64,000 bases of DNA from an uncultured Acidobacteriota bacterium (GTDB lineage: Bacteria > Acidobacteriota > UBA6911 > CAINFC01): contig CAZTVS010000001.1 in NCBI GenBank assembly GCA_964617125.1, forward strand, positions 14,296-78,295, given 5' to 3'. Each line of letters begins with the position of its first letter. The stretch's first letter is position 1. Below, in pieces: positions 1,505 to 54,053 of the stretch. The notes under the pieces are model-generated. The model was not told where the DNA came from. It saw only the letters and a program-made list of their open reading frames with translations, and did no database searches. Both the position numbers and the translations under genes were made by a program.

Positions 1505-3865
1505 ATGAAATCGAAAATGGATAATGAAAATATCGGCGTTAACCAGCGGGTAGATTCGGCTGCGGTACCACTGTCCGGAGATCCCGTCTTTTGGCGTGTG
1601 GAAGGCAGCCTCCTGAATCTCGGGGCGGTCCGTCCGGTGGCCTTTTTCACCTGGAATGCCCAGAGTTTTACCGAGAGGTGGATACGAAGGGGACTTCTCT
1701 TCCTATCCGCTCTGTTTCGGCCGTTGCTCTATGCTTGTAACCGGTCCTTTGCTACCCGATTGCTCCATATCCTGCTTCGCGGTGTCAGCCGGGACCGTAT
1801 GGATCTTCTGGGAGAGGAATTCTTCGAGTACCGGTTGAAACCCAATCTGCGTAAGAAGGGGGTAGATTGCCTGAAGCAGCACCTGATGGCGGGAGAACGT
1901 ATCATTCTGGTCAGTCAGGGGTTGGATCACCTGATGAAGCCCCTGGCGGCCTTCCTCGGCGTGAAAGAGGTGCTGGCTAACCGGCTTGATTTCCACCAGG
2001 GTTTGGCGACCGGGAGATTGATCGGACCGGTCATACGTCCGCGAGGTCTGTTCGCCCGCATAAAACGCCGTAAGCCGGATGGCAGGATGTCGACCGAAGA
2101 ACTCTATCGGGATCTGGGTTTTTCCGTGACCATTCCCGATCTGCTCCAGGACGTAATGCCTTCCCGGCGGGAAAATCACGTCGTCATTTTTCCGGCGGTC
2201 GTATGCGATGATCAGGAAAAAACGGCCGGCTTTTCCGTCCGGGAGAATCTCTCCGGGAAAACGATCCTGCTCATTGGGGTCACCGGATTTATCGGAAAGG
2301 TATGGCTCACCCAGCTGCTGGAAAATCTGCCGGAAATCCGAAAGATCTACCTGTTGATTCGGAAACAACGTTCTTCCACGGCCCAGAAACGTTTTAAGAA
2401 AATGATGGAGGATTCTCCCGTCTTTGATACCCTCTATGAAAGGCACGGATCCGATTTTACCCGTTTCATGGAGAGTTATGTCGAGGTTATCGAAGGAGAT
2501 CTGACGAAAAGCAATCTGGGACTCGACGAAGATGTCGCGCAAAAACTACGTGAGGAACTGGATCTGGTTGTCAACAGCTCCGGATTGACCGATTTTAATC
2601 CTGATCTGCGTAGTGCTATCACCGCGAATATTGAAGCTCCCTTGCAGGCTGTCGAATTTATTCGCAGTTGCCGGAAGGCTGCCCTGATGCATCTTTCCAC
2701 CTGTTTCGTAGCCGGTTTGTGCGATGGACGTATCCCCGAGAATCCCTCGGCAAATTATAATCCCAAGAGAGATAAGAATTTCCAGGCAGAACAGGAACTG
2801 ATTACCGTCCGGAAACTGGTTGCTGAGGCGGTACTGTATTCCGAAAGTGATGAACTGGGTAAAGAACTCGAAGATCAGTTGCAGGGCAAAAAGACAGGGG
2901 AAGACGCCGCCAACACCGGAATCTCCGAGACTCAAGTACGCAAGGCCCGTTCCCGTTGGTTACGGCAACAGGTTACCGATATAGGCATTCAACGGGCCAG
3001 ACTCTGGGGCTGGCCCAACATTTATACCTACACAAAAAGTCTGACCGAATCCCTGATAGAAACCCGTGCCCATGATTTGCCGATAGCCATCGTCAGGCCT
3101 TCCATCGTGGAGACATCGACACATCATCCTTTTCCCGGATGGAATGAAGGAGTGAATACATCCGCTCCACTTTCCTATCTTTTAGGGACCTACTTTCGTC
3201 AGCTCCCGTCCAACGAGGAGAAATGTCTCGACATCGTACCTGTCGACCTGGTTTGCCGAGGAATGACCTTGATCGCAGCTGCTCTGGTTACCCGACACCA
3301 TCAAAGGGTGTATCAATTGGCCTCCTCCTCCAAAAATCCGTGCAACATGCGCCGATCCATCGAATTGACCGGGCTGGCTCATAGAAAACACTACCGCGCC
3401 CAGGAAGGGCTGGAATCCTGGCTGCGAGCGCGTTCCGATTCCATTTCCGTATCCAAAACACGTTACGAACAGATGTCCGTTCCCCGGCAAAAGAAGCTCA
3501 TACACCTCCTGCAGTTGCTGAGTCGGCCTGTTCCGCCGCTGGTGAAAAGTCTGGTTCGCAAGGAGAGGGCCATGGAGCGGGTCGAGGGTATCGTCGAACT
3601 TTATGAACCGTTTATCCTTCATAATCAGCACGTATTCGAATCGGATCACATAGAATTCTTGTCTCAGGCCATTCCGGAAGAAGAGAGATCCCTGTTCGGT
3701 TATGACGTATTCGGTTTTGACTGGTGGCATTACTGGATTAATATCCATGTTCCGGCTTTACGCAAGTGGTGTTATCCGTTGATCGAACAAAAACCGATGG
3801 AACATCGCCGGTCCAGGTCACTTTCGTCCTCGGACCAAGCACAGAACCTCAATCAAGACATATGA
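1505..3865 (+). CDS. Fusion protein: N-terminal HAD-IB-like (degenerate motif I) domain + C-terminal fatty acyl-CoA reductase (NAD_binding_4/male-sterility type)
   Basis: N-terminus resembles HAD-IB hydrolases, but motif I reads [10 protein letters not shown] instead of FFDxDGTL. C-terminal half has Rossmann motif GVTGFIGK and FAR catalytic YTYTK (YxxxK). 786 aa. Confidence 0.7.
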
Positions 3866-5007
3866 ACATCTTTCTTACCGGCTCCACTGGGTATATCGGC
3901 GCACATGTAGCGTATAATCTTCTTTCTTCGAATCCGGAACATCGGTTGAATCTGCTGGTTCGGGCCAAGGACCTTGGCGAAGCCAGAGACCGTATCTGGC
4001 AGGCGTGGCAGCTGCATGACGAATTTCCCCTCATTCGTGAATGGCTGGGCACAAGGGTGCAGATCTTTACCGGCGATCTGACCTCGTCGCAATTCGGTCT
4101 CAGTGCCGAGAGTTACACCAAGCTGATACGTACTTCCGATTCGATCATTCATTGCGCGGCCTCGCTCAATCGACGATCGGAGAAGTCCTGTCTCAAGGTC
4201 AATCTGCGCGGCACTCTGGAAATGACCCAGCTGGGCATGCGTATTCGAGAGGACCACGGTCTGCAGTGTTTCAGCCATGTGAGCACAGTGGCCGTGGCCG
4301 GAGTGCGACATAACGAAGTCGTGGTGGAGGATCGTTCGGTGGATTGGGAACGCTCCGACTACGATCCCTATGCCCGTACCAAGAAGTTTTGCGAACACAT
4401 GATACAGGAGCTGTTGAGGGGCGTTCCCGTCAACATTTTTCGTCCCAGTATCGTTCTGGGAGACAGCCGCTATGGAAAGACAACCCAATTCGATATGGTG
4501 CAGGCGTTTGTATTTTTAGCCGGCTTGCCTGTTTTACCCTTCAGGTCCACAGACCAGATCGATATCGTCAACGTGGATTACGTGGCGGAGGCCATAGCCA
4601 GAATCCATACCCAGATCGAGCCCGGGCCTGGAGTTCGAATTTTTCATCTTTCTTCAGGGAAATCGTCTCAAACCTATCGGGAACTGACCAAGGCACTGGC
4701 GGAAAAGCAGGGGAAAAGGACGCCGATCTTTCTTCCTTGCCTGGAAAAGCCGTTTACTTCTCTGGTGAATTTTCTGGCGAACCGGAGGTCGTTGCCGGGG
4801 AGCCGGCTTGCTTCCCTGATGAAGGTGTTCATGCCCTATCTGGTCTGGAACACGGTGTTCGACAACCGCCGGGTGGTGGAAACGATCGGTTATGCGCCCA
4901 AACCATTTACGGATTATTGTTATCCGCTGTTGAAATTCAGCTTGGAGAATCATTTTCGTTATCCCTATCGTAGTTGGCCGGAACAGCAAGGAAACAAAAC
5001 CATATGA
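3862..5007 (+). CDS. SDR-family thioester reductase / fatty acyl reductase-like (NAD_binding_4)
   Basis: N-terminal [13 protein letters not shown] Rossmann motif and catalytic YARTK (YxxxK). ATG at 3862 overlaps the upstream stop (ATGA at 3862-3865). Confidence 0.7.
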
Positions 5008-6419
5008 TGGATTTCGTACTGCAAGCCTGGGTCGGCAGACTGATCGAGCTGACACGATGGAAGTGGATGCTGGGTTCCGGACAGCGATGGCGTCCCGGGA
5101 AGAAGCTCAAACTCCTCTTCGCCGGATATAACGGCACGCGTAACACCGGAGCGGACGTGCGGGTGGAAGAGATGTTGCGTCAGATACGCTGGATTCTCGG
5201 AGCCGATCGTGTGGAACTGAGCGTGATGTCGCAGAACTTCCGGCGAACCCAGGGGTATTTCCAGGGAACTAGGCAAGTTCATTTGCCCGATATTTTTCCG
5301 CCTTTTCTATACAGGGAAATTCCGCAACACGATGGTGTGGTCGCCTGTGAAGGATCCATGTTCAAGAGTAAATTCGCCAACGCCTTAACGACCATGATGA
5401 TCGGTTCGTTGGGTATGGCAACCGTGGAAAACAAGCTCTCCGTGGGTTATGGGGCGGAAGCGGGCTATATGGACCCATCTCTGGCGCGTATGTGTGCCAG
5501 GTACTGCCGCAAATCCCTGATCATTACCAGAAACGAAGAATCGATGAAGGTATTGGCAGATCTGGGAATTTCCTCCGAACTGGGAACCGACACCGCCTGG
5601 ACTTTTGAACCTTTACCGGCGGAGTATGGCCTGGGAGAGCTAAAGAAGACCGGATGGGATGGAAAGACACCCATTTTGGCATTGTGTCCCATCAATCCAT
5701 TCTGGTGGCCGGTCAGGGCATCTGTGGCCAAGTACGCGGCCAGGATCCTTTTTGGGTCTTACAAAGACAGTCATTATCGGACCGTCTATTTCCACAACTC
5801 CGGAACCAAGGTCCAGGAGAAGTACAAAAGGTATCTGCAAGGAATAGCCGCCGCGGTCGATGCCTTTCGCCGTGAGAAGCGTGTCTTCCCCATTTTATTT
5901 GCCATGGAGAGGCTGGATGTCGGATCCTGCCACCGGCTGAACGAACTGCTCCAGGAGAAGGTCCCGGTTTTAACCTCTGATCAATATGATATGTATCAGA
6001 TGGTCAGCCTGTTGCGATGCTGTCACCTGCTGGTGTCTTCCCGTTATCACGGCATTGTAACGGCCATGCCCGCACTGGTTCCTTCCGCAGGTATCACCAT
6101 GGATGAGCGAATCCGGAATCTTATGCATGAGAGAGGGCATGATCATCTGTTACTACAGGTGGATGACGTCCATATGTCGGAAAAACTCGTTTCCATTTTA
6201 AGAAGTCTGGAGAAAGAACAGGAATCCATCAAGGACGGAATCGGCAAAACCGTAGCCAAGAATATCAAGGTGATGGCACGGATGGGAGTCTTTTTCGAGG
6301 ATCAGGTACGACGTACCTATCCGGATTTTCCCTTGCGTGCAGGTGTGCGTACGTGGGAGGAGTATCTGCCACCATTGAGTCCCCGGGTGCGAAAACTTCT
6401 GGAGAGTTATACCGTATGA
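5004..6419 (+). CDS. Polysaccharide pyruvyl transferase family (PF04230-like) protein
   Basis: N-terminal [25 protein letters not shown] matches the GY-G-N-GD motif of CsaB/WcaK-type pyruvyl transferases. ATGA overlap with upstream gene at 5004-5007. Confidence 0.55.
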
Positions 6420-8083
6420 ACTTTTTGGAACTCATTTTGGAAAGGCTGGGAAAATCTTCAGAAACGGTTCTCCTGGAGGAAATGCAAGCGGGAAAACTCC
6501 ATTCCTTGACCGGCCGGGAAATCCTGCAAAAGATGACCGCTGTTCGTCGAACCCTTCAGGAAGAGGGTGTTCAGCCGGGCGATAGGTGTGTTTTGCTTTC
6601 GCCAAACGGCGTCTCCTGCGCTTGCGTACACCTGGCCATCATCGCCCATGGGGCCGTTTGTGTGCCCATGTATTCGCGACAGGCTCCGGCGGAACTGGCG
6701 GCCATGGTCGCCGATTGTCAGCCTTCATTGCTTATCTGTTCCGATGAAGGACTGAAGGAGGGAATGCAAAAGACCGGGGCCACGCTTCCCAAGATGATTC
6801 TGTTTTCCCAGCTGTTCCGGGAGGGAATTACAGGAGAAGATCCCCTTGCCGCGCCATCCGCTGTGATCCGCAACAGTTCGGATCCGGTAGTCATCATATA
6901 TACCTCAGGAACATCCGGAGAGCCGAAAGGCGTCCTTCTCCATGTCGGCAACATCGATCATATGCTGGGATGCACCAGTGATCGGCTGACACGTCTGATG
7001 AGCGGGACGAATTGCGATCAGGAGCGTGTCTATCACTATTTGCCGGTCAATTACGCCGGTTCCTGGATCCTTATGCTGACCAGCCTTCTGCGTGGCAGCC
7101 GATTGACTTTTTGCACCGATCTGAACCGTATCGCCGACGATCTCGTTTTTGTTTCCCCCCATTACTTTTTGAATGTTCCCATCCTTTTGGAACGAATACG
7201 AAGTGGTATTGAAGGCAAGATGCGGAAAGAAGGCGGGATCGTGGCCGCCTTGTTTCAGAAGGCGCAGAAAGCCTGGTATCGACGAGAAGAAGGGAAAAAG
7301 CGAACCGGAGACGGAATCTGGTTCCATATCGCCGACCGCCTGATCTTTCGAGCGGTACGGAAGAGGTTCGGCACGAGGTTGAAGGCGATTATATGCGGAT
7401 CTGCTCCCCTGTCCCTGGAAACGCAACAATTCTTTCAAATGATGGGCATTTCTATCCTGCAGGTTTACGGTTTGACCGAGACAACCGCCATCTGCACCAT
7501 GGACGATCCCGACCATGTGGAGATGGGGTGGGTCGGACCGGCAGTAGACGGGGTCGAGATGAAACTGGGAGAGATGGATGAGATCCTGGTGAAAGGTCCC
7601 AATGTTTTTCCGGGGTATTGGCATCGTCCTCAGGCAACCGCCGCCGCTTTTTGCGATGGTTGGTTCCGCACCGGGGACCAGGGGGAAGTCAATCAGAGAG
7701 GGAACTGGCGTATTATCGGACGTATCAAGAATCTGCTGATCCTGAGTTCCGGACATAATGTGGCTCCGGAACCGATGGAAGAATGCCTGTTGAAAAGCAT
7801 ACCCGGTATCCGGCAGGTCATTCTGATCGGTCATGGGAAAAGTTTCCTTTCGGCCCTGCTCACCGGTGAGGCCCGGACGGAAGATATAGAGAAAGCGGTG
7901 GAGTCGATCAACGGCACACTGCCTCATTATAAGCGGATTCGTGCCTATCGCCTGCTGGAGGAACCTTTCAGCATCGAAAACGGTCTGTTGACCGCCAACG
8001 GGAAATTGAAAAGAGATCAGATACAGATCCGTTGGGACTCCCGTATCCAGGAGATGTACAGCACCGATTCCACGGCACACTAA
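6416..8083 (+). CDS. fadD: Long-chain acyl-CoA synthetase (AMP-dependent synthetase/ligase)
   Basis: AMP-binding motif YTSGTSGEPKGV, then GYGLTETT and GWFRTGDQG motifs. ATGA overlap with upstream gene at 6416-6419. Confidence 0.8.
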   Translation: MNFLELILERLGKSSETVLLEEMQAGKLHSLTGREILQKMTAVRRTLQEEGVQPGDRCVLLSPNGVSCACVHLAIIAHGAVCVPMYSRQAPAELAAMVADCQPSLLICSDEGLKEGMQKTGATLPKMILFSQLFREGITGEDPLAAPSAVIRNSSDPVVIIYTSGTSGEPKGVLLHVGNIDHMLGCTSDRLTRLMSGTNCDQERVYHYLPVNYAGSWILMLTSLLRGSRLTFCTDLNRIADDLVFVSPHYFLNVPILLERIRSGIEGKMRKEGGIVAALFQKAQKAWYRREEGKKRTGDGIWFHIADRLIFRAVRKRFGTRLKAIICGSAPLSLETQQFFQMMGISILQVYGLTETTAICTMDDPDHVEMGWVGPAVDGVEMKLGEMDEILVKGPNVFPGYWHRPQATAAAFCDGWFRTGDQGEVNQRGNWRIIGRIKNLLILSSGHNVAPEPMEECLLKSIPGIRQVILIGHGKSFLSALLTGEARTEDIEKAVESINGTLPHYKRIRAYRLLEEPFSIENGLLTANGKLKRDQIQIRWDSRIQEMYSTDSTAH

Positions 8084-8108
8084 AGGCGAAATCATCAAGG
8101 AACCTTTC

Positions 8109-8912
8109 ATGGGAAATTTTCAAGGACAATCCCTGTCCTGGGAATCTAAGGACCAAATCATCGAACTGGCCCTGCACCAGTCCCCGTGTAACGAGATCGG
8201 AACCGTCATGTTGGGGGAACTGGAAACCTTTGTCGCAGCATTGCCGGTTCTGCAGACAGAGAACAACGCTCTGATTCTTTACAGTCGATTGCCTTCCGGT
8301 TTTAGTGCCGGCGCCGACCTACGTGAGTTCTGGCGGGGGATATATGGGCTTCCGCTTTCCGATCGCAGGAACGGAATACGTTCCTTCCTGCAGCGGATTC
8401 ATCGAGTCATGAATACCTTGGATATGGCTCCCATTCTGACCATCGCCGCTGTCCACGGAGTAACCTTCGGGGGAGGTTTTGAACTGGCTCTGACTTCCGA
8501 TCTGATCATTGCGGAAAAGAGTGCCCGATTCTGTTTCCCGGAGTTACGTTTGGGCCTGATTCCCGGTTTTGGAGGAATTCCTCGCCTGCGAAGAGATATC
8601 GGAAATGCAGCCATCCGTGACCTGCTGCTGACCGGCAGAAGCTGGAATGCAGTCAGAGCCCAGCAAATCGGTCTGGTATCCCAACTGGTCGGAGAGGGAC
8701 AGGCTTTGGAAACGGCTCGCCGGGCAGCTCTGCAACAAAACAAATTCGATGCAGGGACCCGTAAGGCAGCCAAGTTTTTCATCAAGGACCTTCCACGGGA
8801 AGAACTGGAACGGGAAATGGAAATATTTTGCGATTTGGTAAGTCGACCCGCTCTGGAAGAGGGTTTGAGGAGATTTGTGGAAAACCGTGGACCCCTTCCT
8901 TACCTGCCGTAA
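8109..8912 (+). CDS. Enoyl-CoA hydratase/isomerase (crotonase family)
   Basis: Crotonase oxyanion-hole region FSAGADLREF and GGGFELALTSDLIIA ... ELRLGLIPGFGG. Confidence 0.75.
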   Translation: MGNFQGQSLSWESKDQIIELALHQSPCNEIGTVMLGELETFVAALPVLQTENNALILYSRLPSGFSAGADLREFWRGIYGLPLSDRRNGIRSFLQRIHRVMNTLDMAPILTIAAVHGVTFGGGFELALTSDLIIAEKSARFCFPELRLGLIPGFGGIPRLRRDIGNAAIRDLLLTGRSWNAVRAQQIGLVSQLVGEGQALETARRAALQQNKFDAGTRKAAKFFIKDLPREELEREMEIFCDLVSRPALEEGLRRFVENRGPLPYLP

Positions 8913-10835: not shown

Positions 10836-11900
10836 ATGGAAAGGCGGGAGATAATTTCCAGGGTATTACTGCTTGGGGCCGCTTGGCCTTGGCAGAATAT
10901 GAGTAAAAACACTCAGGAAACCGGCGATGCCAAGTCGATCGCCCTAGACCCTGTCACTCGCCTGGAGACTTATGCGGAAAAGGCGGAAATCCTGAATAAG
11001 GATGGATCTCCTGCCTTGGGCCTGAACGGTCTGGTCCTCATCCCATCTGTGGTTGTCGATGATGCCGCATTGGAGGTGGAGATTTTTGCCGAGGAGGATT
11101 GTTGCCCGGGGATACTGTTTCGTGCTCTCGATCAGAAAAATTTCGAGCTGGCTTACGCTGCCCCCCACAACAGCGAGCAAGCGGATACCATTCAGTACGA
11201 TCCTGTATTTTTAGGATCCAATACCTGGCAGCTCTATTCCGGTTCCCAATATCAGACAAAAGCCAAGGTGCAAAAAAAGCAATGGTTTCGCTTCCGGATC
11301 GATATGATCGGAGAGCAGGCCTTTATTCAGCTTGGAGACAGTCCGCCGCTGTGTGTGGAAAAACTGGCTCATGGAAGAAAGGCCGGCCGTATAGGTTTGT
11401 GGACATATCGTCCCGCTTTTTTCCGGAATCTCCGGATGTTTTCACCGCGAAAAATTGACCACCCTCGAAATGAAGTCCCACTCCCGCAAGGTACGGTCAT
11501 GGAATGGGGGTTGGAAGGGTATGGCGCTGTCTTTTGCGAACCGAACGGGGTGTTGAACGTCAATCGGTATTTGCCGGTGACGCAAGGAGTTGCCAGACTT
11601 AAACGACGATTTGAAGTGAAAAGGGAAACAGAGATGGAGATGAATTTCGGATTCAGCGATGAACTCCTTATGACTCTGAACGAGGAGATATGCTTTTCCG
11701 GAACCCATCTTTTTAAGGGTTTTCAAAACATGCAGGACAGGGGAAGTGTTTCGCAGGAGGCCAATCGAATCACGAAAAAGCTGAAAAAAGGCTTTTACCA
11801 AGTCTGTGCCCAGTTGAAGGTATCTGAACCTTTCGGTTGGGGGATATCCTTACGGGTCCAGGGCGAGAATATCGAATGGCTTCCGGCAACGACCCCTTAG
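10836..11900 (+). CDS. Hypothetical protein (start possibly at MSKN, nt 10896)
   Basis: Long ORF with no recognisable motif. Same frame as PilZ, separated by one TGA. Confidence 0.4.
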   Translation: MERREIISRVLLLGAAWPWQNMSKNTQETGDAKSIALDPVTRLETYAEKAEILNKDGSPALGLNGLVLIPSVVVDDAALEVEIFAEEDCCPGILFRALDQKNFELAYAAPHNSEQADTIQYDPVFLGSNTWQLYSGSQYQTKAKVQKKQWFRFRIDMIGEQAFIQLGDSPPLCVEKLAHGRKAGRIGLWTYRPAFFRNLRMFSPRKIDHPRNEVPLPQGTVMEWGLEGYGAVFCEPNGVLNVNRYLPVTQGVARLKRRFEVKRETEMEMNFGFSDELLMTLNEEICFSGTHLFKGFQNMQDRGSVSQEANRITKKLKKGFYQVCAQLKVSEPFGWGISLRVQGENIEWLPATTP

Positions 11901-11919: not shown

Positions 11920-12837
11920 ATGATGCGACTCATAACCCGATCTGATTTTGACGGTTTGGTCTGTGCTGTCCTTTTAAAAGAAATCGGAATCGTCGATTCC
12001 TACCAGTTTGTCCATCCCAAGGATGTACAGGATGGAAAAATCAAAGCAACGGAAAATGATATTGTTGCCAATATCCCCTATATTCCTGGTTGTGGTATGT
12101 GGTTTGACCATCACGTCAGCGAAAAGGACAGAAAGGCCTTTCCCGATACCTGGCAGGGAGCGAGTTACAAGGAAAAAAGTGCCGGACGGGTCATTTACAA
12201 CTACTTCGGCGGGCCGGCCAAATTCCCCGCCGCTTTTTCGGAAATGATGACGGCCGTAGATAGAACCGATTCCGGTAATCTGACCACGGAGGAGATCCTT
12301 CAACCGCAGCGCTGGATTCTGCTTTCCTTTATTATGGATCCGCGAACCGGTCTGGGGCGTTATAAGGACTATCGAATCAGCAACTATCAACTCATGGAAG
12401 CGTTGATCGAAATGTGCCGGACCGGAAAGATCGAGAACATACTGGAACAGGAAGATGTCAACGAGAGAATCGTCCGATATCAGGCCCAGGAAAAGGCATA
12501 CCGGGAGATGATACTCAAAAATTCCCGGGTCGAGGGAAAGGTTTTAGTGATTGATCTGCGGGAAGTGGAAGAAATCGTGACCGGCAATCGATTTGTCGAG
12601 TACAGCCTCTTTCCGGAAACATGCACCTCCATACGGATTATTTGGGGCTTGAAAAAACAAAATACCGTATTTGCCGTAGGGCATAGCATTATCGACCGTT
12701 CTTCCAAGGTGAATATCGGATCTCTGCTGCTTTCCCTGGGTGGAGGCGGACATTCTCAAGTGGGCACCTGCCAGATAGAGAATGCCAAAGCGGAAGAGAC
12801 GCTGCGATGGTTAATTGATTCCCTGAATCACGGTTGA
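11920..12837 (+). CDS. nrnA: DHH/DHHA1 phosphoesterase, NrnA-like nanoRNase/pAp phosphatase
   Basis: DFDG (DxD), FDHH (DHH motif), C-terminal GGGGH (DHHA1). Confidence 0.65.
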   Translation: MMRLITRSDFDGLVCAVLLKEIGIVDSYQFVHPKDVQDGKIKATENDIVANIPYIPGCGMWFDHHVSEKDRKAFPDTWQGASYKEKSAGRVIYNYFGGPAKFPAAFSEMMTAVDRTDSGNLTTEEILQPQRWILLSFIMDPRTGLGRYKDYRISNYQLMEALIEMCRTGKIENILEQEDVNERIVRYQAQEKAYREMILKNSRVEGKVLVIDLREVEEIVTGNRFVEYSLFPETCTSIRIIWGLKKQNTVFAVGHSIIDRSSKVNIGSLLLSLGGGGHSQVGTCQIENAKAEETLRWLIDSLNHG

Positions 12838-12842
12838 TGCTC

Positions 12843-13892
12843 TCAGCGCTTGATACGAAACAGGCGTATCTCCTTGGTTTCATCGGGACATTCCACCTCG
12901 GCGTAGACCCAGAATTCTTCTCCGACAGTCAGCCAGCTGGAATAGCGAAGAGTACGGAAATTCTTGCTGGGGGTGGAACTGAAAAGGAGGGGGGCTTCCG
13001 GGGTCAGGTCGATGATCGTATGCAGATCAAAAGAAAATCCGATTCCGGTTGCGATGTTGTAGACGGGATCATGCCAGCTTGTGCCGGATCCTTCATAGAT
13101 AAAAAGATATCCTACTCCCAGAGGAAGGATACTGGCGGGGCGAACGAAAAAGTCATGCCAACCTGAGAGATCCATGATCGGTTGATATGGATTTCCTGCT
13201 GCCTGCCAATCCTCCCCATCCTTGCTCTGGAAATGAAAGATACGCTCGTTTTGCCGGATATAGCCTATGACAAAGCAGTGATAGGTGCCTTCGCTGAACA
13301 ACAGGACCGGATCCTTGAAACTGCGTGGGGGGATGTCGCGATCATATTTGGGAGCGGGAGGGCGAATGACGACTTTTGCCGATGAGGGTTGAAACTCTCC
13401 CGGTTTGGTGGCGTCCTTTAGTTTCAAAATTCCCCAGGAATCCCCTTCGATCGGTCCGCAGATATAGAGTTTGAAGAGGCCGGTCCGTGGATCTATGAGC
13501 AAAGCCGGGCGTTCCACACCGGCGATGGGTACATTTTCCCGCAGGATACTTTGCACTTTTTCAAAATGAATTCCATCCTGGCTGCGGAGCAGGCGGATTT
13601 CATATCCGCGAAGTCCGCGCGGGGCCTCCGCAGTACGCATGCGGCAGGCCATCCAGAAGATGCCGTCTTTGTCCACTACGACAGAGGGTGCACCGGCCCA
13701 CCATTCGGGAGCGATCTTATCGGGACGCAGAATGACGTCATATCTGGTGAATTTGCCGGGAATGATGCCGTACTCCCGTACACCGCTGGAAACGTCGATT
13801 TGCTGGGGCACGGATTGTTCCATGCCGCAGAAAACGGTTGTTACTCCCAGGAGAAAAAAAATACCGCTCAAAAAAGACTTCATGGTCTGCAT
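12843..13892 (-). CDS. Secreted hypothetical protein with signal peptide; possibly beta-propeller glycosidase-like
   Basis: N-terminal MKSFLSGIFFLLGVTTVFCG signal peptide. W/D-rich repeats (DPRTG, WHD). No firm family assignment. Confidence 0.45.
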   Translation of the reverse strand: MQTMKSFLSGIFFLLGVTTVFCGMEQSVPQQIDVSSGVREYGIIPGKFTRYDVILRPDKIAPEWWAGAPSVVVDKDGIFWMACRMRTAEAPRGLRGYEIRLLRSQDGIHFEKVQSILRENVPIAGVERPALLIDPRTGLFKLYICGPIEGDSWGILKLKDATKPGEFQPSSAKVVIRPPAPKYDRDIPPRSFKDPVLLFSEGTYHCFVIGYIRQNERIFHFQSKDGEDWQAAGNPYQPIMDLSGWHDFFVRPASILPLGVGYLFIYEGSGTSWHDPVYNIATGIGFSFDLHTIIDLTPEAPLLFSSTPSKNFRTLRYSSWLTVGEEFWVYAEVECPDETKEIRLFRIKR

Positions 13893-31744: not shown

Positions 31745-32359
31745 TCATCCTCCGGCAGGGACAAACCTTCGACCCATCAAGCGGTGTCCTCCTTCCAAAA
31801 CCAAGCGGATCGCTTGTGGGTAGATTCTGTGCTCCTGTTCCAGGATTCTGGCGGAAAGAGATTCTTCTGAATCTTCGGCCAGTACCGGCACCACCGACTG
31901 TAGAATGATCGGCCCCGAATCTAAACCGTAATCGACGAAGTGGACAGTGCAGCCGGTGAACTGTACGCCTGCATCCAATGCCTGGCGTTGTGCGTGCATT
32001 CCAGGAAAGGCGGGGAGCAGGGAAGGGTGAATGTTCAATATGTTCCGGGGAAAGGCGTCTATCAATACCGGCGAAAGCAACCGCATAAAACCTGCCAGGC
32101 AAACAATATCCGTTTGATGATCTCTTAGAATCTGAACAACTCGGCGATCGAAATCCTCCCGATTCAAATTCTGGTGATCGACATAAAAAGAGGCCAGTCC
32201 GGCCTTACGGGCCGCTTCCAGACCGGGGGCCTCCATCCGATTGCTGATCACACAGGAAATGTCGGCAAGCAGCCGTTTTTCCAGGATAGCCTGATGGATG
32301 GCCAGAAAATTGGATCCCCGGCCGGAAAGCAAAATACCGATTTTTTTATTGCCAGACAT
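31745..32359 (-). CDS. purN: Phosphoribosylglycinamide formyltransferase
   Basis: KIGILLSGRGSNF ... NIHPSLLPAFPG. Confidence 0.85.
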   Translation of the reverse strand: MSGNKKIGILLSGRGSNFLAIHQAILEKRLLADISCVISNRMEAPGLEAARKAGLASFYVDHQNLNREDFDRRVVQILRDHQTDIVCLAGFMRLLSPVLIDAFPRNILNIHPSLLPAFPGMHAQRQALDAGVQFTGCTVHFVDYGLDSGPIILQSVVPVLAEDSEESLSARILEQEHRIYPQAIRLVLEGGHRLMGRRFVPAGG

Positions 32360-32413
32360 ATGTTTTCCAGGAGGAAAAAATGCAGGAAACGGCCGGAAGC
32401 AGAAGGCCGGCTT

Positions 32414-33463
32414 TCAATCCTGTTGGTAGATGACGCGGGTATTGCCGCGGACTACTTCTCCGATCAGGTAGTGGGCCTCTTCCGCCTTTTGCAATATTTC
32501 CTTGGCCGTTTCCAACTTTTCCGGTGGAACGACCAGAATCATCCCGATGCCCATGTTGAATACCCGGTACATCTCCTCTTCTTCGATATTTCCCAGACGC
32601 TGTAACGTGGAGAATATGGCCGGTACCGGCCAACGTCCGCGATAGATATGGGCGCAAAAACCGGGGGGCAGAATACGAGGAAGATTTTCCGTAATGCCGC
32701 CTCCGGTGATGTGTGCTGCCGCCAGAACACAATGGTGATCGATCAAAGAACGCACCGGATGGAGATAACTCCTGTGCACCTTCAACAGCTCTTCCCCCAC
32801 CGAACAGGAAGAATCCGGCAGGGGAGAATTCAGCTTCAGGCCGGCATCTTCCAGAAGCACTTTTCTGGCGAGCGAATATCCGTTGGTATGCAGTCCGGTG
32901 GAAGGCAGGCCAATGAGAAAATTTCCGCTCAGAATACGCTTGGGTCCCAACAGCTTGTTTTTTTTAACGGATCCTACTATAAAGCCGGCTAGGTCATACT
33001 CTCCAGGAGTATAGAAACCCGGCATCTGAGCTGTTTCTCCGCCAATCAGGGCACAGTGATTGTTCTTGCACTCGTCGGCAAGTCCACGAATGATTTGTTC
33101 GGTAGTCCCTTCGTTTAAACTGGAATAGGCCAGGTAATCCATGAAAAACAGGGGTGAGGCCCCTTGGGTCAGAATATCGTTGACGCAATGAGCCACCAGA
33201 TCTTTTCCGACCGTAGAATGGATATCGGAGGCGAAGGCGATTTTCAGCTTGGTACCGACTCCGTCGGCGCTGCTGACAAGAATCGTATTTTGAGCTCCCA
33301 ATTCATCCAGCGAGTAAAGTCCGCCGAATCCTCCCAACGCCGGTAGAACACCATCCGTGTGGGTGCGTTGAATGTGTTGAAGAATGGTGGCTTTGACAGA
33401 TGCCGCCTTGTCCAGATTGACACCCGCTCGGGAATAGGCATCCTCGTTTATTTTCGTATCCAT
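32414..33463 (-). CDS. purM: Phosphoribosylformylglycinamidine cyclo-ligase (AIR synthase)
   Basis: AYSRAGVNLD ... GGFGGLY. AIRS and AIRS_C domains. Confidence 0.85.
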   Translation of the reverse strand: MDTKINEDAYSRAGVNLDKAASVKATILQHIQRTHTDGVLPALGGFGGLYSLDELGAQNTILVSSADGVGTKLKIAFASDIHSTVGKDLVAHCVNDILTQGASPLFFMDYLAYSSLNEGTTEQIIRGLADECKNNHCALIGGETAQMPGFYTPGEYDLAGFIVGSVKKNKLLGPKRILSGNFLIGLPSTGLHTNGYSLARKVLLEDAGLKLNSPLPDSSCSVGEELLKVHRSYLHPVRSLIDHHCVLAAAHITGGGITENLPRILPPGFCAHIYRGRWPVPAIFSTLQRLGNIEEEEMYRVFNMGIGMILVVPPEKLETAKEILQKAEEAHYLIGEVVRGNTRVIYQQD

Positions 33464-33501
33464 GCAAAGATCCTCCGCCTGTTATTGTTCGCTTGCTGCC
33501 G

Positions 33502-34968
33502 TTAAGGATTAGGGCCCGATGTTGTCTTGCTGCCTTCTAAAGAGCATACCATTTCCGGAGTTTTAATTGGATACTCACCGCTAAAACATGCGGTACAGTA
33601 AGAACGTCCCTCCGGATCCTCCACACAGCTTCTCAGGCTGTCATGGGTCAGGTAGTGAAGGCTGTCGACACCCAGGTAATCGCGGATTTGTTCGATCGAT
33701 TTTTGAGTAGCTATCAGTTCCTGTTTCGTCGGTGTATCGATGCCGTAAAAGCAGGGGCTGACGATCGGCGGAGAGCCGATGCAGAGGTGAAGTTTCCTCG
33801 CTCCCGTGGAGCGTATCATATGGCAAATCTCCTGACTGGTAGTTCCTCGAACCAGGGAATCGTCGATCAGAACCACGTCCTTGCCATGGAAGATTTCTTT
33901 CACTGGATTCAGTTTGACGCGGACACCGAATTCACGCATGGCCTGCGATGGTTCGATAAAAGTCCGGCCGATGTAATGGTTGCGGATCAGGCCGAAGTCA
34001 AAACGGATGCCCGAGGCGGCGGAGAAGCCCAGGGCGGCAGATACACCTGAATCGGGTACCGGAACAACGACATCCGCCGATAGCTTAAATTCCTTAGCCA
34101 TGCAGCGACCAATGTCATAACGCACCTGATTCACATTGCGTCCGAAAACCAGGCTGTCGGGCCGGGAAAAATAGATGTGTTCAAAAATGCATTGTGATGT
34201 TTTCTCCAATGCAGCGTAACGCAAACGTTTCCAGCCCGATGGATTACAAAGTACAATCTCCCCCGGTTGAACATCATCCAGATAGGTGGCGCCGATCAGG
34301 TCTAGGGCGCTGGTTTCCGAAGCAAAAACATAGGCGTTATCCAACCGGCCGATACAAAGAGGACGGAATCCGAAGGGGTCTCTGATTGCGGCCATTTGGT
34401 CTTTGGTCAGGACAAGAAGGGAGAAAGCTCCCCGCAAAGGTGCAAGGGCCTCCGGCAGGGCGTCCTCAAGGAATTTCTTTTTACTGCGGCCGATGAGCTT
34501 GAGGATGATTTCGCTGTCGGAGCTGGTAAAGAAGGATTCGTGTTTGCGCAATAAGTCGCTGCGAAGGCTTTCGGCATTGGCCAGGTTGCCGTTATGGCAA
34601 AGAGCGATCGCTCCGCGATGAGATTCGTTCAGAATGGGCTGGGCATTTTGCAGACGGCTTTCTCCCGCAGTCGAGTAGCGTACATGACCGATGGAGTGAA
34701 TTCCGCTGAGGAGTTTCAATCGAGCCGGGGTAAAGACATCGCTTACATACCCCATTCCCTTTTCCTGATGGAGTCTGCCTTCGTCGCTGGAACAGATTCC
34801 GGCGGATTCCTGTCCCCGGTGCTGCAGGGCATAGAGTCCCAGATAAGTCATGCGTACGGCCTTGGGGTGTTGAAAGATGCCGAATATGCCGCAATGATCG
34901 TGAAAACGGTCCGGCTCCGTAAAATTTCGATAGGAGCAGGGATAGGGCATTTTTTCCAGAATATTCAT
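33502..34968 (-). CDS. purF: Amidophosphoribosyltransferase
   Basis: N-terminal nucleophile CGIFGIF. PRTase domain. C-terminal Cys residues consistent with a 4Fe-4S type. Confidence 0.9.
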   Translation of the reverse strand: MNILEKMPYPCSYRNFTEPDRFHDHCGIFGIFQHPKAVRMTYLGLYALQHRGQESAGICSSDEGRLHQEKGMGYVSDVFTPARLKLLSGIHSIGHVRYSTAGESRLQNAQPILNESHRGAIALCHNGNLANAESLRSDLLRKHESFFTSSDSEIILKLIGRSKKKFLEDALPEALAPLRGAFSLLVLTKDQMAAIRDPFGFRPLCIGRLDNAYVFASETSALDLIGATYLDDVQPGEIVLCNPSGWKRLRYAALEKTSQCIFEHIYFSRPDSLVFGRNVNQVRYDIGRCMAKEFKLSADVVVPVPDSGVSAALGFSAASGIRFDFGLIRNHYIGRTFIEPSQAMREFGVRVKLNPVKEIFHGKDVVLIDDSLVRGTTSQEICHMIRSTGARKLHLCIGSPPIVSPCFYGIDTPTKQELIATQKSIEQIRDYLGVDSLHYLTHDSLRSCVEDPEGRSYCTACFSGEYPIKTPEMVCSLEGSKTTSGPNP

Positions 34969-34969
34969 A

Positions 34970-36001
34970 TCAACGACTGATCCGTTTTTCCGGAATGACC
35001 ACCGGGTTGGGTGGCCGTCTGCCCTGCAGGACAGCGGTTACGTTGCGGATGGCGGTCATGGCGATTCCGGTGCGTGCTTCCACGGTTGCACTTCCGATGT
35101 GAGGTAATAGAACAACCTGATCCAGCGATTCCAGTCCTTTTTCCACCATCGGTTCCTGTTCGAAAACATCCAGGCCGGCACCGGCTATTTTCCTGTTACG
35201 CAGCGCATCCAGGAGCGCTCTCTCATCGACAACGGGGCCTCTTGCCGTGTTGATCAGGATGGCTGTCGGTTTCATGAGAGAGAATTGAGGAGAAGCGATC
35301 ATGTGACGGGTGGTGCTGGTCAGCGGGACGTGAAGAGAGATAAAATCCGAACGGCGTAAAAGTCCGGATAGCGTGACGTACCGGGCAGACAACCGTTGTT
35401 CCTGCTCCGGGGAAAGACGCAATGGATTGTGATAGAGAATTTTCAGCCCAAAACCTTTGGCCCTCTCGGCGACGGCTTGTCCGATACGTCCCATGCCCAC
35501 TATGCCGAGGGTTTTTCCGGAGAGTTGCGTGCCCAGGAAGAGATGAAAATCCCAACCATGAAATCTTCCCTCCCGTAAAAAACGATCCCCGGATACGATA
35601 TGGCGCGCGACGCTCAACAAGAGCCCCATCGTCAGATCGGCGGTCGCTTCGGTCAGCACACCGGGAGTATTGGTTACCCAGATGCCAAGTTCCTGCGCGG
35701 CAGCCGTATCTATATTGTTGAATCCGGCAGCAGCATTAGCGATAATTTTCAGCCGGGGAGCGGATTCCATGATTCGACGATCAATGGAGTCGTACAGGAA
35801 ACTGATCAAAGCGTCGGCGTCTTTTATATGCTTGCGTATTTCCCGCGAGGAGATAGGTTCGGATTTCCTATGGGAGATCAGCCGGCCGAAGGGGGCCAGA
35901 CGGTCCAGAGCCTTTTCCGGCAAGCGACCGGTAATCAAAATGGTATGAGATGGTTTGTCCATAGCGATGATGATGGGCTCAGGAATAAAGCTTGACTTCA
36001 T
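34970..36001 (-). CDS. D-isomer-specific 2-hydroxyacid dehydrogenase (glyoxylate/hydroxypyruvate reductase or PGDH-like)
   Basis: NAD-binding GIVGMGRIGQAVAERA. Catalytic R/E/H triad region. Start MKSS at 36001 preceded by GGAG and overlaps the last BMC-P by 23 nt. Confidence 0.7.
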   Translation of the reverse strand: MKSSFIPEPIIIAMDKPSHTILITGRLPEKALDRLAPFGRLISHRKSEPISSREIRKHIKDADALISFLYDSIDRRIMESAPRLKIIANAAAGFNNIDTAAAQELGIWVTNTPGVLTEATADLTMGLLLSVARHIVSGDRFLREGRFHGWDFHLFLGTQLSGKTLGIVGMGRIGQAVAERAKGFGLKILYHNPLRLSPEQEQRLSARYVTLSGLLRRSDFISLHVPLTSTTRHMIASPQFSLMKPTAILINTARGPVVDERALLDALRNRKIAGAGLDVFEQEPMVEKGLESLDQVVLLPHIGSATVEARTGIAMTAIRNVTAVLQGRRPPNPVVIPEKRISR

Positions 36002-36251
36002 CCACCACTCCGATAACGGCAACATCGATAGCGGCGGATTTTTTGCCTACAGCCGCCGAGGCGGCGAAACCGTCCTGAACCAGCAACACCAGATCTCCAG
36101 GACCGGCATCTACTCCGTCCACCGCCAGCAGTTCTTCTCCGGACGGATTATGGTCCAGATCCAACGGCTGGACAATGAGAATTTTGGCGCCATCGAAATC
36201 GGAATACTTTTGCGAGGCGACAATGTTTCCAGTCACTTTTGCCAGAATCAT
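35979..36251 (-). CDS. BMC vertex (pentamer) protein, EutN/CcmL/PduN family (paralog 3)
   Basis: MILAKVTGNIVASQK...GAKILIVQ...AVDGVDAGPGDLVLLV is typical of PF03319. ATGA overlap with paralog 2. Confidence 0.75.
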   Translation of the reverse strand: MILAKVTGNIVASQKYSDFDGAKILIVQPLDLDHNPSGEELLAVDGVDAGPGDLVLLVQDGFAASAAVGKKSAAIDVAVIGVVDEVKLYS

Positions 36252-36526
36252 GGATGGTCCGTGGAGTGATGAATGCGATCGACGATACCGACGACGGTGA
36301 CGTCGGTCGGAGTTTCCCGTGGAAAGAAGGGGAAGGCGGCCTCTTTACTGCGAACGTAAAATACTGTTTCCCCGGTTCCGGCACCAACTGCATCCGTGGC
36401 TACGAAAGCAGGCCCGATAAGAACCCCATCGGGGCGAAGATGCTTGAGGAGAAGCATCTTTCTCTCCTGGAGACCCTCATTTTTCATGGTGGAAACGATC
36501 GTTCCGACAACTTTTGCCAGTCGCAT
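36248..36526 (-). CDS. BMC vertex (pentamer) protein, EutN/CcmL/PduN family (paralog 2)
   Basis: MRLAKVVGTIVSTMK...KMLLLKHL...ATDAVGAGTGETVFYV. Confidence 0.75.
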   Translation of the reverse strand: MRLAKVVGTIVSTMKNEGLQERKMLLLKHLRPDGVLIGPAFVATDAVGAGTGETVFYVRSKEAAFPFFPRETPTDVTVVGIVDRIHHSTDHP

Positions 36527-36578
36527 GTCAGGCGTGATTTTCCGTTCTTCTAAAAACGGTTATGGCGTTCTATCGACA

Positions 36579-36608
36579 AGTTTCCCTTCTGTGGAGGGAA
36601 GGGAAACT
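36579..36608 (-). promoter_or_regulatory. Perfect 11-bp stem hairpin between BMC-P paralogs 1 and 2 (intra-operon attenuator/RNA stability element candidate)
   Basis: AGTTTCCCTTC-tgtggagg-GAAGGGAAACT. It lies in the only sizeable gap (92 nt) within the shell operon. Confidence 0.45.
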
Positions 36609-36618
36609 CGTCTGTGGA

Positions 36619-36882
36619 TCAGATTTCGATGGTGTCTACTATCCCGATGATGGCTGTATCGACCGGATGGTCCTTCAAGCCCGAAGCCATGCGGGCGGAA
36701 CTGCCGCTGACGCAGAGTACTACGTCACCTCTTCCGGCTTGCACCGTATCGATAGCTACCGTATAACCCGATTCCTTTTTTGTTTCAGGATCGAGGGTGC
36801 GTACCACCAGCAGCTTTTTGCCCTGCAGTTTTTCGTCCTTGCGGGTGGCCACCACCGTCCCGGCTACTTTGCCAAGGATCAT
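36619..36882 (-). CDS. BMC vertex (pentamer) protein, EutN/CcmL/PduN family (paralog 1)
   Basis: MILGKVAGTVVATRK...GKKLLVVRTL...AIDTVQAGRGDVVLCV. Confidence 0.75.
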   Translation of the reverse strand: MILGKVAGTVVATRKDEKLQGKKLLVVRTLDPETKKESGYTVAIDTVQAGRGDVVLCVSGSSARMASGLKDHPVDTAIIGIVDTIEI

Positions 36883-36887
36883 AAAAA

Positions 36888-37184
36888 TTACTTGCCGGCT
36901 TTGATATTGATCGGCAGCCGTTCATCCAGATTGGAATGTGGACGAGGAATGACGTGTACGCTGACCAACTCGCCTACGCGCCGGGCCGCGGCCGCTCCGG
37001 CATCCGTGGCCGCCTTAACGGCAGCGACATCGCCACGGACGATGGCGGTAACATAACCGGAACCGATCTTTTCATATCCGATGAGGGTTACTTTAGCAGC
37101 TTTGACCATCGCATCAGAAGCCTCAACCATTGCCACAAAGCCTTTGGTTTCAATCATTCCCAATGCTTCCATATTATCAGCCAT
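36888..37184 (-). CDS. BMC shell hexamer protein (PduA/EutM/CcmK family, PF00936)
   Basis: [62 protein letters not shown] is near-identical in pattern to PduA. SD AAGGAGA 7 nt upstream. Confidence 0.85.
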
Positions 37185-37236
37185 GTTTTCTCCTTGAAAG
37201 AATGAGATACTGTGTTGCTGGCGTTTAAAAGCAAAA

Positions 37237-37266
37237 TTTATATCACACCCGGAGAATGGTTTGCAA
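37237..37266 (-). promoter_or_regulatory. Candidate sigma70-like promoter for BMC shell operon (TTGCAA-N18-TATAAA on minus strand)
   Basis: Minus strand reads ttgcaa accattctccgggtgtga tataaat. Followed by a 5'UTR with AAGGAGA SD before the BMC-H ATG. Confidence 0.35.
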
Positions 37267-53195: not shown

Positions 53196-54053
53196 ATGTT
53201 GCCAAAGAGATTCGAATCATTTTTTCCTAGGAGCCATGTGAATAAAAATCGTATTGTATGGACTATTGCCGTTCTCCTGACGATCTTTCTGGTGATCTGG
53301 CAAAGGAGAACGGGGCCGACATACCCCCTCCGGGGAGAATTGGAATTGGGCGGTAAAAACTATTCCTATAGCCTTCCCCGCAGCCATGCGGAGCCGTCTC
53401 CGTGTCCGGTACGCCTGCAGAATTTCCAGGAAAACCATATACAAGCCGTGTTGGTTTTCAGACGGGTAGGTGTGGAAGAACCATGGACCCGTGTCTCTAT
53501 GCTTCCTTCGGCGGAAGGACTGCTGGCTGAAATTCCCTTACAGCCAAAAGCCGGAAAAGTCGCCTACTTCATCGAGGTGGAGCAATCGGGAAGAAAACAT
53601 AGTGTTGGCGATGAACGGAATCCGGTGGTTGTCCGGTTCCGGGGCAGTGTACCTGTGTGGATTGTCTTGCCTCATATTTTGTGCATTTTCCTTGCCTTCC
53701 TTTATGCTCTAGTAGCCGGACTGAAAGCCTCCTTGGGCCTGGAGGGATATCTGTCTGCCGCCCGAATCGGTATACTTTTCTTGTTCCTCGGCGGATTTCT
53801 TTTTGGCCCTTGGATGCAGAAATATGCCTTCGACGTTTATTGGGCCGGTTTTCCCAGTGGCCAGGATTTGACGGATAACAAGACCCTAATCGCCCTTCTT
53901 GGATGGATCGTTGCTCTGGCCATGAATCACAGGAAACCGCGGCCGATATGGATTGTTTCTGCCGCCTTGTTGATGCTTCTGGTGTTTTTAATTCCGCACA
54001 GCACATTCGGTTCCACTCTGGATTATTCCACCATGCAGGTGAAAACCGGGTGA
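53196..54053 (+). CDS. Hypothetical polytopic membrane protein
   Basis: Several hydrophobic helices (IVLPHILCIFLAFLYALVAG, ILFLFLGGFLFGPW, IWIVSAALLMLLVFLI). No motif. Confidence 0.4.
   Translation: MLPKRFESFFPRSHVNKNRIVWTIAVLLTIFLVIWQRRTGPTYPLRGELELGGKNYSYSLPRSHAEPSPCPVRLQNFQENHIQAVLVFRRVGVEEPWTRVSMLPSAEGLLAEIPLQPKAGKVAYFIEVEQSGRKHSVGDERNPVVVRFRGSVPVWIVLPHILCIFLAFLYALVAGLKASLGLEGYLSAARIGILFLFLGGFLFGPWMQKYAFDVYWAGFPSGQDLTDNKTLIALLGWIVALAMNHRKPRPIWIVSAALLMLLVFLIPHSTFGSTLDYSTMQVKTG

Follow-up and report, generated by a model that had tools for sequence, protein, structure and literature searches.

A probable shell module of the ACI-type microcompartment, without an adjacent aldolase gene, in an uncultured acidobacterium

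We analyzed a 64-kb stretch of DNA from an uncultured acidobacterium (the window, by which we mean the whole stretch) and focused on four consecutive bacterial microcompartment (BMC) shell genes on its minus strand, one encoding a hexamer shell protein (BMC-H) and three encoding pentamer paralogs (BMC-P1, BMC-P2 and BMC-P3, or P1–P3). In our judgment this block is likely the shell module of the catalogued ACI-type microcompartment, in a reduced locus layout and with its cargo genes unlinked. The four genes are contiguous inside 1.2 kb:

36888–37184, minus strand: BMC-H hexamer shell protein, PF00936, 98 amino acids (94 amino acids with the ATG at 37172)
36619–36882, minus strand: BMC-P1, first pentamer paralog, 87 amino acids, PF03319 at 106.7 bits
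36248–36526, minus strand: BMC-P2, second pentamer paralog, 92 amino acids, PF03319 at 82.8 bits
35979–36251, minus strand: BMC-P3, third pentamer paralog, 90 amino acids, PF03319 at 87.5 bits

The identity of the four proteins is clear. In a Pfam scan, BMC-H matched PF00936 over its full length at 105.3 bits (E 1.6e-30), and P1–P3 matched PF03319, also over their full lengths, with E values between 1e-23 and 1e-31. The Pfam gathering cut-offs for the two domains are 24.5 and 25 bits, and all four proteins lie far above them. The original prediction, made from the sequence without database searches, had proposed one BMC-H and three distinct BMC-P genes in a row on the minus strand and had suggested scoring the three small open reading frames (ORFs) against the PF03319 thresholds; the scores bear it out. 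The tight packing that it described is also seen in the coordinates and the sequence: BMC-H and P1 are separated by 5 nt and P1 and P2 by 92 nt, and P2 and P3 overlap by 4 nt (ATGA). The overlap of the P2 stop with the P3 start suggests translational coupling. With pairwise identities of 38–41%, P1, P2 and P3 are true paralogs. Apart from these four genes, the window contains no further BMC-H or BMC-P gene, and no BMC-T gene.

BMC-H carries the KIGSGY pore and IPRPH motifs in its translation and exceeds the NCBIfam cut-off for the EutM equivalog (149 vs 133 bits), which reflects the conserved, basal BMC-H type. P1–P3 scored 54–86 bits against the EutN, CcmL and CsoS4 equivalogs of NCBIfam and did not reach the cut-offs of 118–125 bits. 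The block differs in this respect from EUT, PDU and carboxysome loci, whose signature enzymes are also missing from the window. The assignment of P1–P3 to the ACI type is one of positional orthology to ACI loci.

The ACI type was described from 125 loci, none of them outside Acidobacteria (Sutter, Melnicki, Schulz, Woyke & Kerfeld 2021, Nat Commun 12:3809; PMC8217296). Its shell is made up of one BMC-H with typical motifs and an adjacent BMC-P triplet, and the enzymes of its main locus are an aldolase (PF00596) with a C-terminal encapsulation peptide (EP) and a hydroxyacid dehydrogenase (PF00389/02826) (PMC8217296). The type also has three proteins without known homologs, one of them of ~80 amino acids with an N-terminal EP and conserved cysteines, and an EP-bearing aldehyde dehydrogenase (PF00171) that is encoded in a satellite locus in most genomes (PMC8217296). 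The window shares with this type its acidobacterial host, a basal BMC-H followed by three BMC-P genes that are best-hit orthologs in the same order, a main locus without BMC-T, and a PF00389/PF02826 dehydrogenase gene after the third BMC-P, as in ACI loci of the Vicinamibacterales type and in a more distant relative, L092.

To place the block among its relatives, we ran a P2 profile against a set of genomes that represents each GTDB species once, took the best 80 loci and mapped reference proteins onto them by tblastn. All 80 were from Acidobacteriota (Pyrinomonadaceae/Blastocatellia, Chloracidobacterium, Vicinamibacterales and Bryobacterales). The order H-P1-P2-P3 was found in 73, and each of the window's paralogs was the best hit of the gene at the same position. 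Ortholog identities with the ACI loci were 78–88% for BMC-H, 52–68% for P1 and 39–55% for P3; for P2 they were 50–59% in the 80 acidobacterial genome loci and 67–82% in four close relatives. The closest genomic locus, L009, from an uncultured Acidobacteria metagenome-assembled genome (MAG), has the same synteny and a P2 that is 74% identical. The lineage appears to be sparsely represented in protein collections: a P2 search among 5.8 billion proteins returned just five clusters at 67% identity or more, and then a large set at 50–57% that included Pyrinomonadaceae. Conspecific sequences (L005–L008) are present in Logan and JGI assemblies. The original prediction held that the block fits no characterized BMC locus class, and it named an identical arrangement in relatives, annotated as part of a known type, as what would overturn this view. 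Comparison with the catalogue and of synteny gave exactly that result: the genes are one-to-one orthologs of those of the ACI type, in the same order.

The gene orders of the window and its nearest relatives are as follows:

Window and conspecific contig L005: PfkB kinase-H-P-P-P-dehydrogenase-purF
L091: PfkB kinase-H-P-P-P-dehydrogenase-purF
L009: metG-H-P-P-P-dehydrogenase-purM-purN
L089/L090: metG-H-P-P-P-purM-purN, no dehydrogenase, purM 6 nt after the shell genes
L092, more distant: aldolase(EP)-H-P-P-P-dehydrogenase-purS-purQ, the full arrangement

The small clade to which the window belongs has five known members, and in none of them does an aldolase gene lie next to the shell genes. 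These arrangements are most simply read as derived from an ancestral ACI locus next to pur genes, whose enzyme genes were then lost or moved elsewhere step by step.

The shell genes themselves are well preserved. Compared with L009, L091 and L089, BMC-H is 96–99% and P1 91–94% identical at the protein level, with synonymous sites saturated. The ratio of non-synonymous to synonymous substitution rates (dN/dS) of BMC-H in these comparisons is 0.004–0.05, and it is the most strongly conserved of the four. P2 and P3 are ~70% identical to their counterparts, with dN/dS of ~0.06–0.11 where measurable (~0.08–0.11 for P2 where synonymous sites are unsaturated), similar to the housekeeping gene purM. 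All four shell genes are thus under strong purifying selection. This bears on whether the block might be the decaying remnant of an ACI locus without current function. The aldolase and the small ACI proteins are indeed gone from the locus, and one relative has lost the dehydrogenase as well. All four ORFs, however, are intact in six independent assemblies, a good Shine-Dalgarno sequence and the tight or overlapping junctions have been retained, and both the near-identity of BMC-H at saturated synonymous sites and dN/dS values well below 1 in all four genes are at odds with decay. We regard a remnant of this kind as extremely improbable.

What is unusual in the window, compared with other ACI loci, is the missing aldolase. 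A class II aldolase gene lies just upstream of BMC-H in 66 of the 80 loci. In seven loci it is lacking; five of these reach a contig end, and the remaining two, L009 and L036 (Pyrinomonas methylaliphatogenes K22), lack an aldolase although over 9 kb of their upstream sequence is available (none within 9.4 kb in K22). The gene is therefore present next door in 66, and absent in 2, of the 68 evaluable genomic loci. In the window, Pfam searches on every large ORF of the 64 kb found no PF00596 aldolase, no PF00171 aldehyde dehydrogenase, no phosphotransacylase, glycyl-radical enzyme or RuBisCO, and no eut, pdu or carbonic anhydrase gene, and tblastn with two divergent ACI aldolases gave no match in it at E values up to 0.1. 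The earlier statement that no known core enzyme lies within about 15 kb accordingly extends to the full 64 kb. Instead of following an aldolase gene, the block sits between a heptose-7-phosphate kinase gene and purF-purM-purN. Because the defining aldolase was looked for and is absent, we file the locus as a variant derived from ACI; it is not a plain member of the type.

Two features follow the shell genes on the same strand:

34970–35962, minus strand: D-isomer-specific 2-hydroxyacid dehydrogenase of the glyoxylate/hydroxypyruvate reductase type, 330 amino acids, alternative start at 36001
31745–34968, minus strand: purF-purM-purN, identified by Pfam, operon context and not proposed as part of the compartment

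The Pfam scan of the dehydrogenase gave 212.7 bits for PF02826 and 109.3 bits for PF00389. Its nearest NCBIfam model is glyoxylate reductase, at a score under the cut-off, and JGI names its homologs 'glyoxylate reductase'. The gene starts 16 nt past BMC-P3; with the ATG at 36001 as its start, the two would overlap. A single nucleotide separates the end of the dehydrogenase gene from purF, which is followed by purM and purN. With such short distances on both sides of the dehydrogenase, the shell genes do not form an isolated four-gene unit. A dehydrogenase gene occupies the same place after BMC-P3 in L009, L091, L092 and 10 Vicinamibacterales-type ACI loci; the 10 and L009 make up the 11 of the 80 scanned loci that have it there. 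The window enzyme is 57–58% identical to that of the complete L092 locus and belongs to the same dehydrogenase clade. It had been taken for a housekeeping flank in the original prediction, a view that we abandon: it is a listed ACI component and has been kept beside BMC-P3 in three lineages.

We also considered whether the N-terminal extension of the dehydrogenase (MLPLSEWWMKSSFIPEPIIIA) could be an encapsulation peptide, and rejected this: the extension overlaps BMC-P3 and is proline-rich, and the C-terminus is unextended. The extension differs at 4 of 19 positions between strains that are 96% identical. Since it has no targeting peptide, the dehydrogenase is probably a cytosolic companion enzyme of the ACI type, as far as its sequence indicates.

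Several observations weigh against the assignment to ACI. Besides the signature aldolase, the ~80-residue protein with EP and cysteines and the other ACI proteins without known homologs are absent from the whole window: the motif of the former is found in none of the six frames of the window or of its relatives, and the latter (unk104 and unk120) had no significant tblastn match in the window. The dehydrogenase is 44–49% identical to the Vicinamibacterales ACI dehydrogenases and 53–56% identical to generic glyoxylate reductases from non-BMC phyla. In a crude neighbor-joining tree it falls outside the ACI dehydrogenase clade, on another branch than the Vicinamibacterales enzyme, so that the two locus-associated clades are separate, and a close relative (L089/L090) has no dehydrogenase at all. 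When the L092 aldolase was used as a protein query, two close matches (76–78%) were followed by a gradual series at 57% or less, with no match between 57% and 76% that could be assigned to the window's lineage. Finally, we found no experimental characterization of the ACI compartment in the later literature that we searched, and its functional roles are assigned by analogy.

In Vicinamibacterales-type loci, a small protein of 70–86 amino acids is encoded between P3 and the dehydrogenase (for example L011 10593–10817, L033 8586–8825, L045 10592–10813 and L049 10569–10802, among others). It has an EP-like N-terminal helix, MTEQELRALVREAI, and a C-terminal CxIEPAVxCNHCGYC motif. This protein fits the catalogue description of the EP-plus-cysteine protein, and neither the window's clade nor L092 has it. 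As for the aldolase, the alignment shows its EP tail ('...TLTRSELFELID...') in L092 and in two subdivision-4 loci, and the tail also appears in 40 homolog tails and in the locus-derived aldolases. An E. coli FucA reference for length was used only to show the C-terminal extension of the ACI aldolase.

If the block is an ACI shell module, its cargo genes, the aldolase and the aldehyde dehydrogenase, most likely lie elsewhere in the genome. Such dispersal is plausible because the ACI aldehyde dehydrogenase is normally unlinked, and because both unlinked EP-tailed aldolases and isolated P2-P3 pairs exist. The K22 locus, with its nearest 9.4 kb free of an aldolase, is a further precedent. A metagenome scan with an aldolase profile yielded 80 loci, none from metagenomes that hold the window's species. 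Many were standard aldolase-H-P-P-P loci. In others, an EP-tailed aldolase stood by itself, with up to 10 kb of sequence on each flank free of shell genes. Some EP-tailed aldolase genes without shell genes lie directly downstream of glutamate dehydrogenase (L102 9911–10756, L110 3176–3979 and L151 6082–6969, and further cases in L136, L140, L146, L157 and L169).

The absence of the aldolase could also be taken at face value. The ACI aldolase would then be truly lost, and the four shell genes would enclose another cargo, possibly a purine-linked one. In keeping with this, the aldolase is missing from the 64 kb as well as from beside the shell genes throughout the clade, the protein search returned no clearly lineage-specific aldolase, and the shell genes are under strong purifying selection throughout. 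In the window, L009, L089, L091 and L092 alike, pur genes come directly downstream; L089/L090 have shell genes only, with purM 6 nt later. The pur genes, however, also adjoin the aldolase-bearing L092 locus, which points to inherited synteny, and PurF, PurM and PurN are of ordinary length, with no EP-like terminal extension seen from their lengths and N-termini (the N-terminus of PurF is a propeptide ahead of the catalytic Cys). EP-tailed aldolases unlinked from shell genes do occur in other Acidobacteria, and the aldehyde dehydrogenase cargo of ACI is normally unlinked anyway. We therefore think a repurposed shell unlikely, and quite unlikely in the fuller form of a natural minimal shell that has lost its aldolase (and in one relative the dehydrogenase), is kept by strong selection in a purine-biosynthesis operon and has been repurposed for another cargo, conceivably one tied to purine metabolism.

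The block could also be a satellite locus that gives vertex proteins to a complete metabolosome elsewhere in the genome. Acidobacteria do scatter BMC-P genes, as isolated P2-P3 pairs show (L015, L022, L031 and L087). The window, though, has both BMC-H and BMC-P genes, which by the catalogue definition makes a main BMC locus (PMC8217296), and with H-P1-P2-P3 it has every core shell gene of ACI. A satellite role is in our view very unlikely. The isolated pairs themselves stand among housekeeping genes in Blastocatellia (at 10001–10578 in L022 and 10001–10532 in L087), and a lone P2-like gene occurs in another acidobacterial MAG (L010 9366–9641). Their neighbors include gatB, cyclophilin, PPDK, glpX and an Mrp/NUBPL ATPase, and no BMC-H, P1, aldolase or aldehyde dehydrogenase gene was found near them.

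An ACI shell module is also a different proposal from that of the original prediction, which saw in the block a new, enzyme-less, shell-only class of BMC whose 3:1 ratio of pentamer to hexamer genes would favor very small shells, close to T=1. The gene count fits: the window has a single BMC-H gene, three BMC-P genes and no BMC-T. Recombinant systems have yielded small shells, of T=3 and T=4, from BMC-H and BMC-P alone, and PDB entries 6QN1, 6OWF and 7CKB were among the structure matches of the shell proteins. Gene copy number, however, does not determine stoichiometry, and a T=1 shell would hold no hexamer, yet BMC-H is the most strongly conserved of the four proteins. A counter-example is provided by the Haliangium ochraceum shell of PDB 5V74, which we take to be a T=9 shell with one BMC-H and three BMC-P genes. 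Nor does the block look like a class of its own, as it shows clear orthology and synteny with cargo-bearing ACI loci, and one BMC-H with three BMC-P genes is both the published ACI shell and a common triplet pattern. We consider such a class highly improbable. The accompanying claims that three pentamer genes are rare, and their ratio to hexamer genes the inverse of the typical one, did not hold either: the BMC-P triplet recurs in ACI, HO, FRAG and other types (PMC8217296). Its multiplicity is unexplained, as just twelve pentamers are required (PMC8217296).

Two of these other types resemble the window in part. The HO system of H. ochraceum (PDB 5V74, 6MZX) likewise has one BMC-H and a BMC-P triplet. 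The solved wild-type structures nearest to the window's BMC-H are HO-5815 (135 bits) and EutM, and the best PDB match of P1 is the HO shell BMC-P in 5V74 (74.5 bits, compared with 55 for P2 and 44 for P3), making 5V74 the closest solved relative of BMC-H and P1 alike. HO loci also have three BMC-T proteins and an aldehyde dehydrogenase. The window has neither, and HO is myxobacterial. FRAG loci have shell genes scattered over several genomic sites among housekeeping genes, with a BMC-P triplet (PMC8217296). The window shares with them the triplet, the distance from known BMC enzymes and the housekeeping neighbors; in contrast to FRAG loci, its four shell genes are contiguous, its host is acidobacterial and the genes are orthologous to those of ACI.

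Two further features concern the expression of the ACI-like block:

37237–37265, minus strand: candidate sigma-70-like promoter read from the sequence, TTGCAA, 18 nt, TATAAA, with a TG one base upstream of the −10 hexamer
36575–36612, minus strand: perfect 15-bp RNA hairpin followed by a smaller hairpin, inside the 92-nt P1–P2 spacer

The candidate promoter and the strong Shine-Dalgarno sequence of the original prediction can both be read upstream of BMC-H, the latter as AAGGAG 6 nt ahead of the ATG at 37184. A consensus scan did not list the promoter-like site because its −10 hexamer ends in A, and we treat it as a candidate. The hairpin has a minimum free energy of −31.9 kcal/mol (z = −5.1). 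Its stem is preserved in the conspecific contig L005 through two double compensatory pair changes, and among the more distant relatives compared it is not conserved beyond the species. A repeated, REP-like element was ruled out, as the hairpin is present in a single copy in the window. It may serve as an mRNA stability or attenuation element within the operon, and as such may tune the ratio of H and P1 to P2 and P3 expression.

The spacer also divides the block into two sub-modules: H-P1, 5 nt apart and extremely conserved, and P2-P3, overlapping and faster evolving. P1 is the most conserved of the three pentamer paralogs and probably the principal vertex protein. In subdivision-4 ACI loci, the P1–P2 junction is an insertion hotspot (L001/L002 9585–9995; L003 8995–9999), where some loci carry a DoxX-family membrane protein and others a 334-residue CarboxypepD_reg/TPR protein.

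One of these subdivision-4 loci touches the taxonomic range of the type. L002 (7515–12329; CP070897.1, the 'Leptolyngbya sp. 7M' chromosome) and L001 (7515–12329) share a segment of 4,815 bp at 99.98% identity, and this segment holds an entire ACI locus of the subdivision-4 type. The flanks of L001 are typically acidobacterial (RuvA/RuvB/Rex), while L002 was deposited as a cyanobacterium and has HetR nearby. Either a mixed culture gave rise to a chimeric assembly or the segment was transferred very recently; it would contradict the restriction of ACI to Acidobacteria.

Upstream of BMC-H is a gene for a PfkB/RfaE-domain-I kinase (heptose-7-phosphate kinase), and Pfam searches of every large ORF found only housekeeping genes outside the shell block. 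An Rfam search of the window gave two tRNAs only. We rejected a horizontally transferred island, as the GC content of 0.53–0.54 compares with a window mean of ~0.51 and there is no skew anomaly. In several separate lineages of Acidobacteria, ACI-type shell clusters stand beside genes of de novo purine biosynthesis (purF/M/N or purS/Q), and the junctions are often just 1–6 nt long (window 31745–34968; L092 6430–7481; L089 3847–5543; L002 1289–2229). The pur genes directly downstream are purM-purN in L009 and L089, and purS-purQ in L092. This proximity is probably inherited synteny. Elsewhere, at 1505–8912 on the plus strand, two genes resembling fatty-acyl-CoA reductases (NAD_binding_4, one with a HAD fusion) are clustered with a polysaccharide pyruvyl transferase-like gene, an AMP-binding enzyme and an enoyl-CoA hydratase, which may form a lipid or wax-alcohol pathway. 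Four ORFs of 285–354 amino acids had no Pfam match at E 1e-4 or better: 10836–11900, 11920–12837 and 53196–54053 on the plus strand, and 12843–13892 on the minus strand.

Taking the block as an ACI shell module, we propose the following arrangement. BMC-H would tile the facets and P1 would cap the vertices, with the translationally coupled P2-P3 pair as the other, conserved part of the BMC-P triplet. The shell genes, the dehydrogenase, purF, purM and purN would be co-transcribed from the candidate promoter upstream of BMC-H, and the hairpin after P1 may favor H and P1 over P2 and P3. The cargo would consist of a class II aldolase with a C-terminal EP and the aldehyde dehydrogenase of a satellite locus, both encoded elsewhere in the genome. 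For the chemistry, the working model comes from the fucose/rhamnose microcompartment of Planctomycetes and Verrucomicrobia (PVM), the experimentally studied relative with which ACI has been compared, where a class II aldolase generates the aldehyde by converting a sugar-phosphate to dihydroxyacetone phosphate and an aldehyde (PMC8217296). The window differs from PVM in having no aldolase, in its shell gene content and in its taxon, and the analogy is one for ACI in general.

These findings do not introduce a new kind of organelle. The locus is an ordinary find with a modest twist, namely that the gene for the usual cargo aldolase is not adjacent, and of the readings considered here a repurposed shell with a truly lost aldolase is the only one that would be of high interest, if true. 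The locus adds a rare lineage of uncultured acidobacteria to the range of the uncharacterized ACI microcompartment, and it shows an ACI shell block that persists under strong selection while unlinked from the signature aldolase. As a consequence, classification based on loci can miss the cargo. The window also offers a clean, natural set of four shell genes with no BMC-T and two separable sub-modules, H-P1 and P2-P3, so that the question of why there are three pentamer paralogs when twelve pentamers suffice becomes testable.

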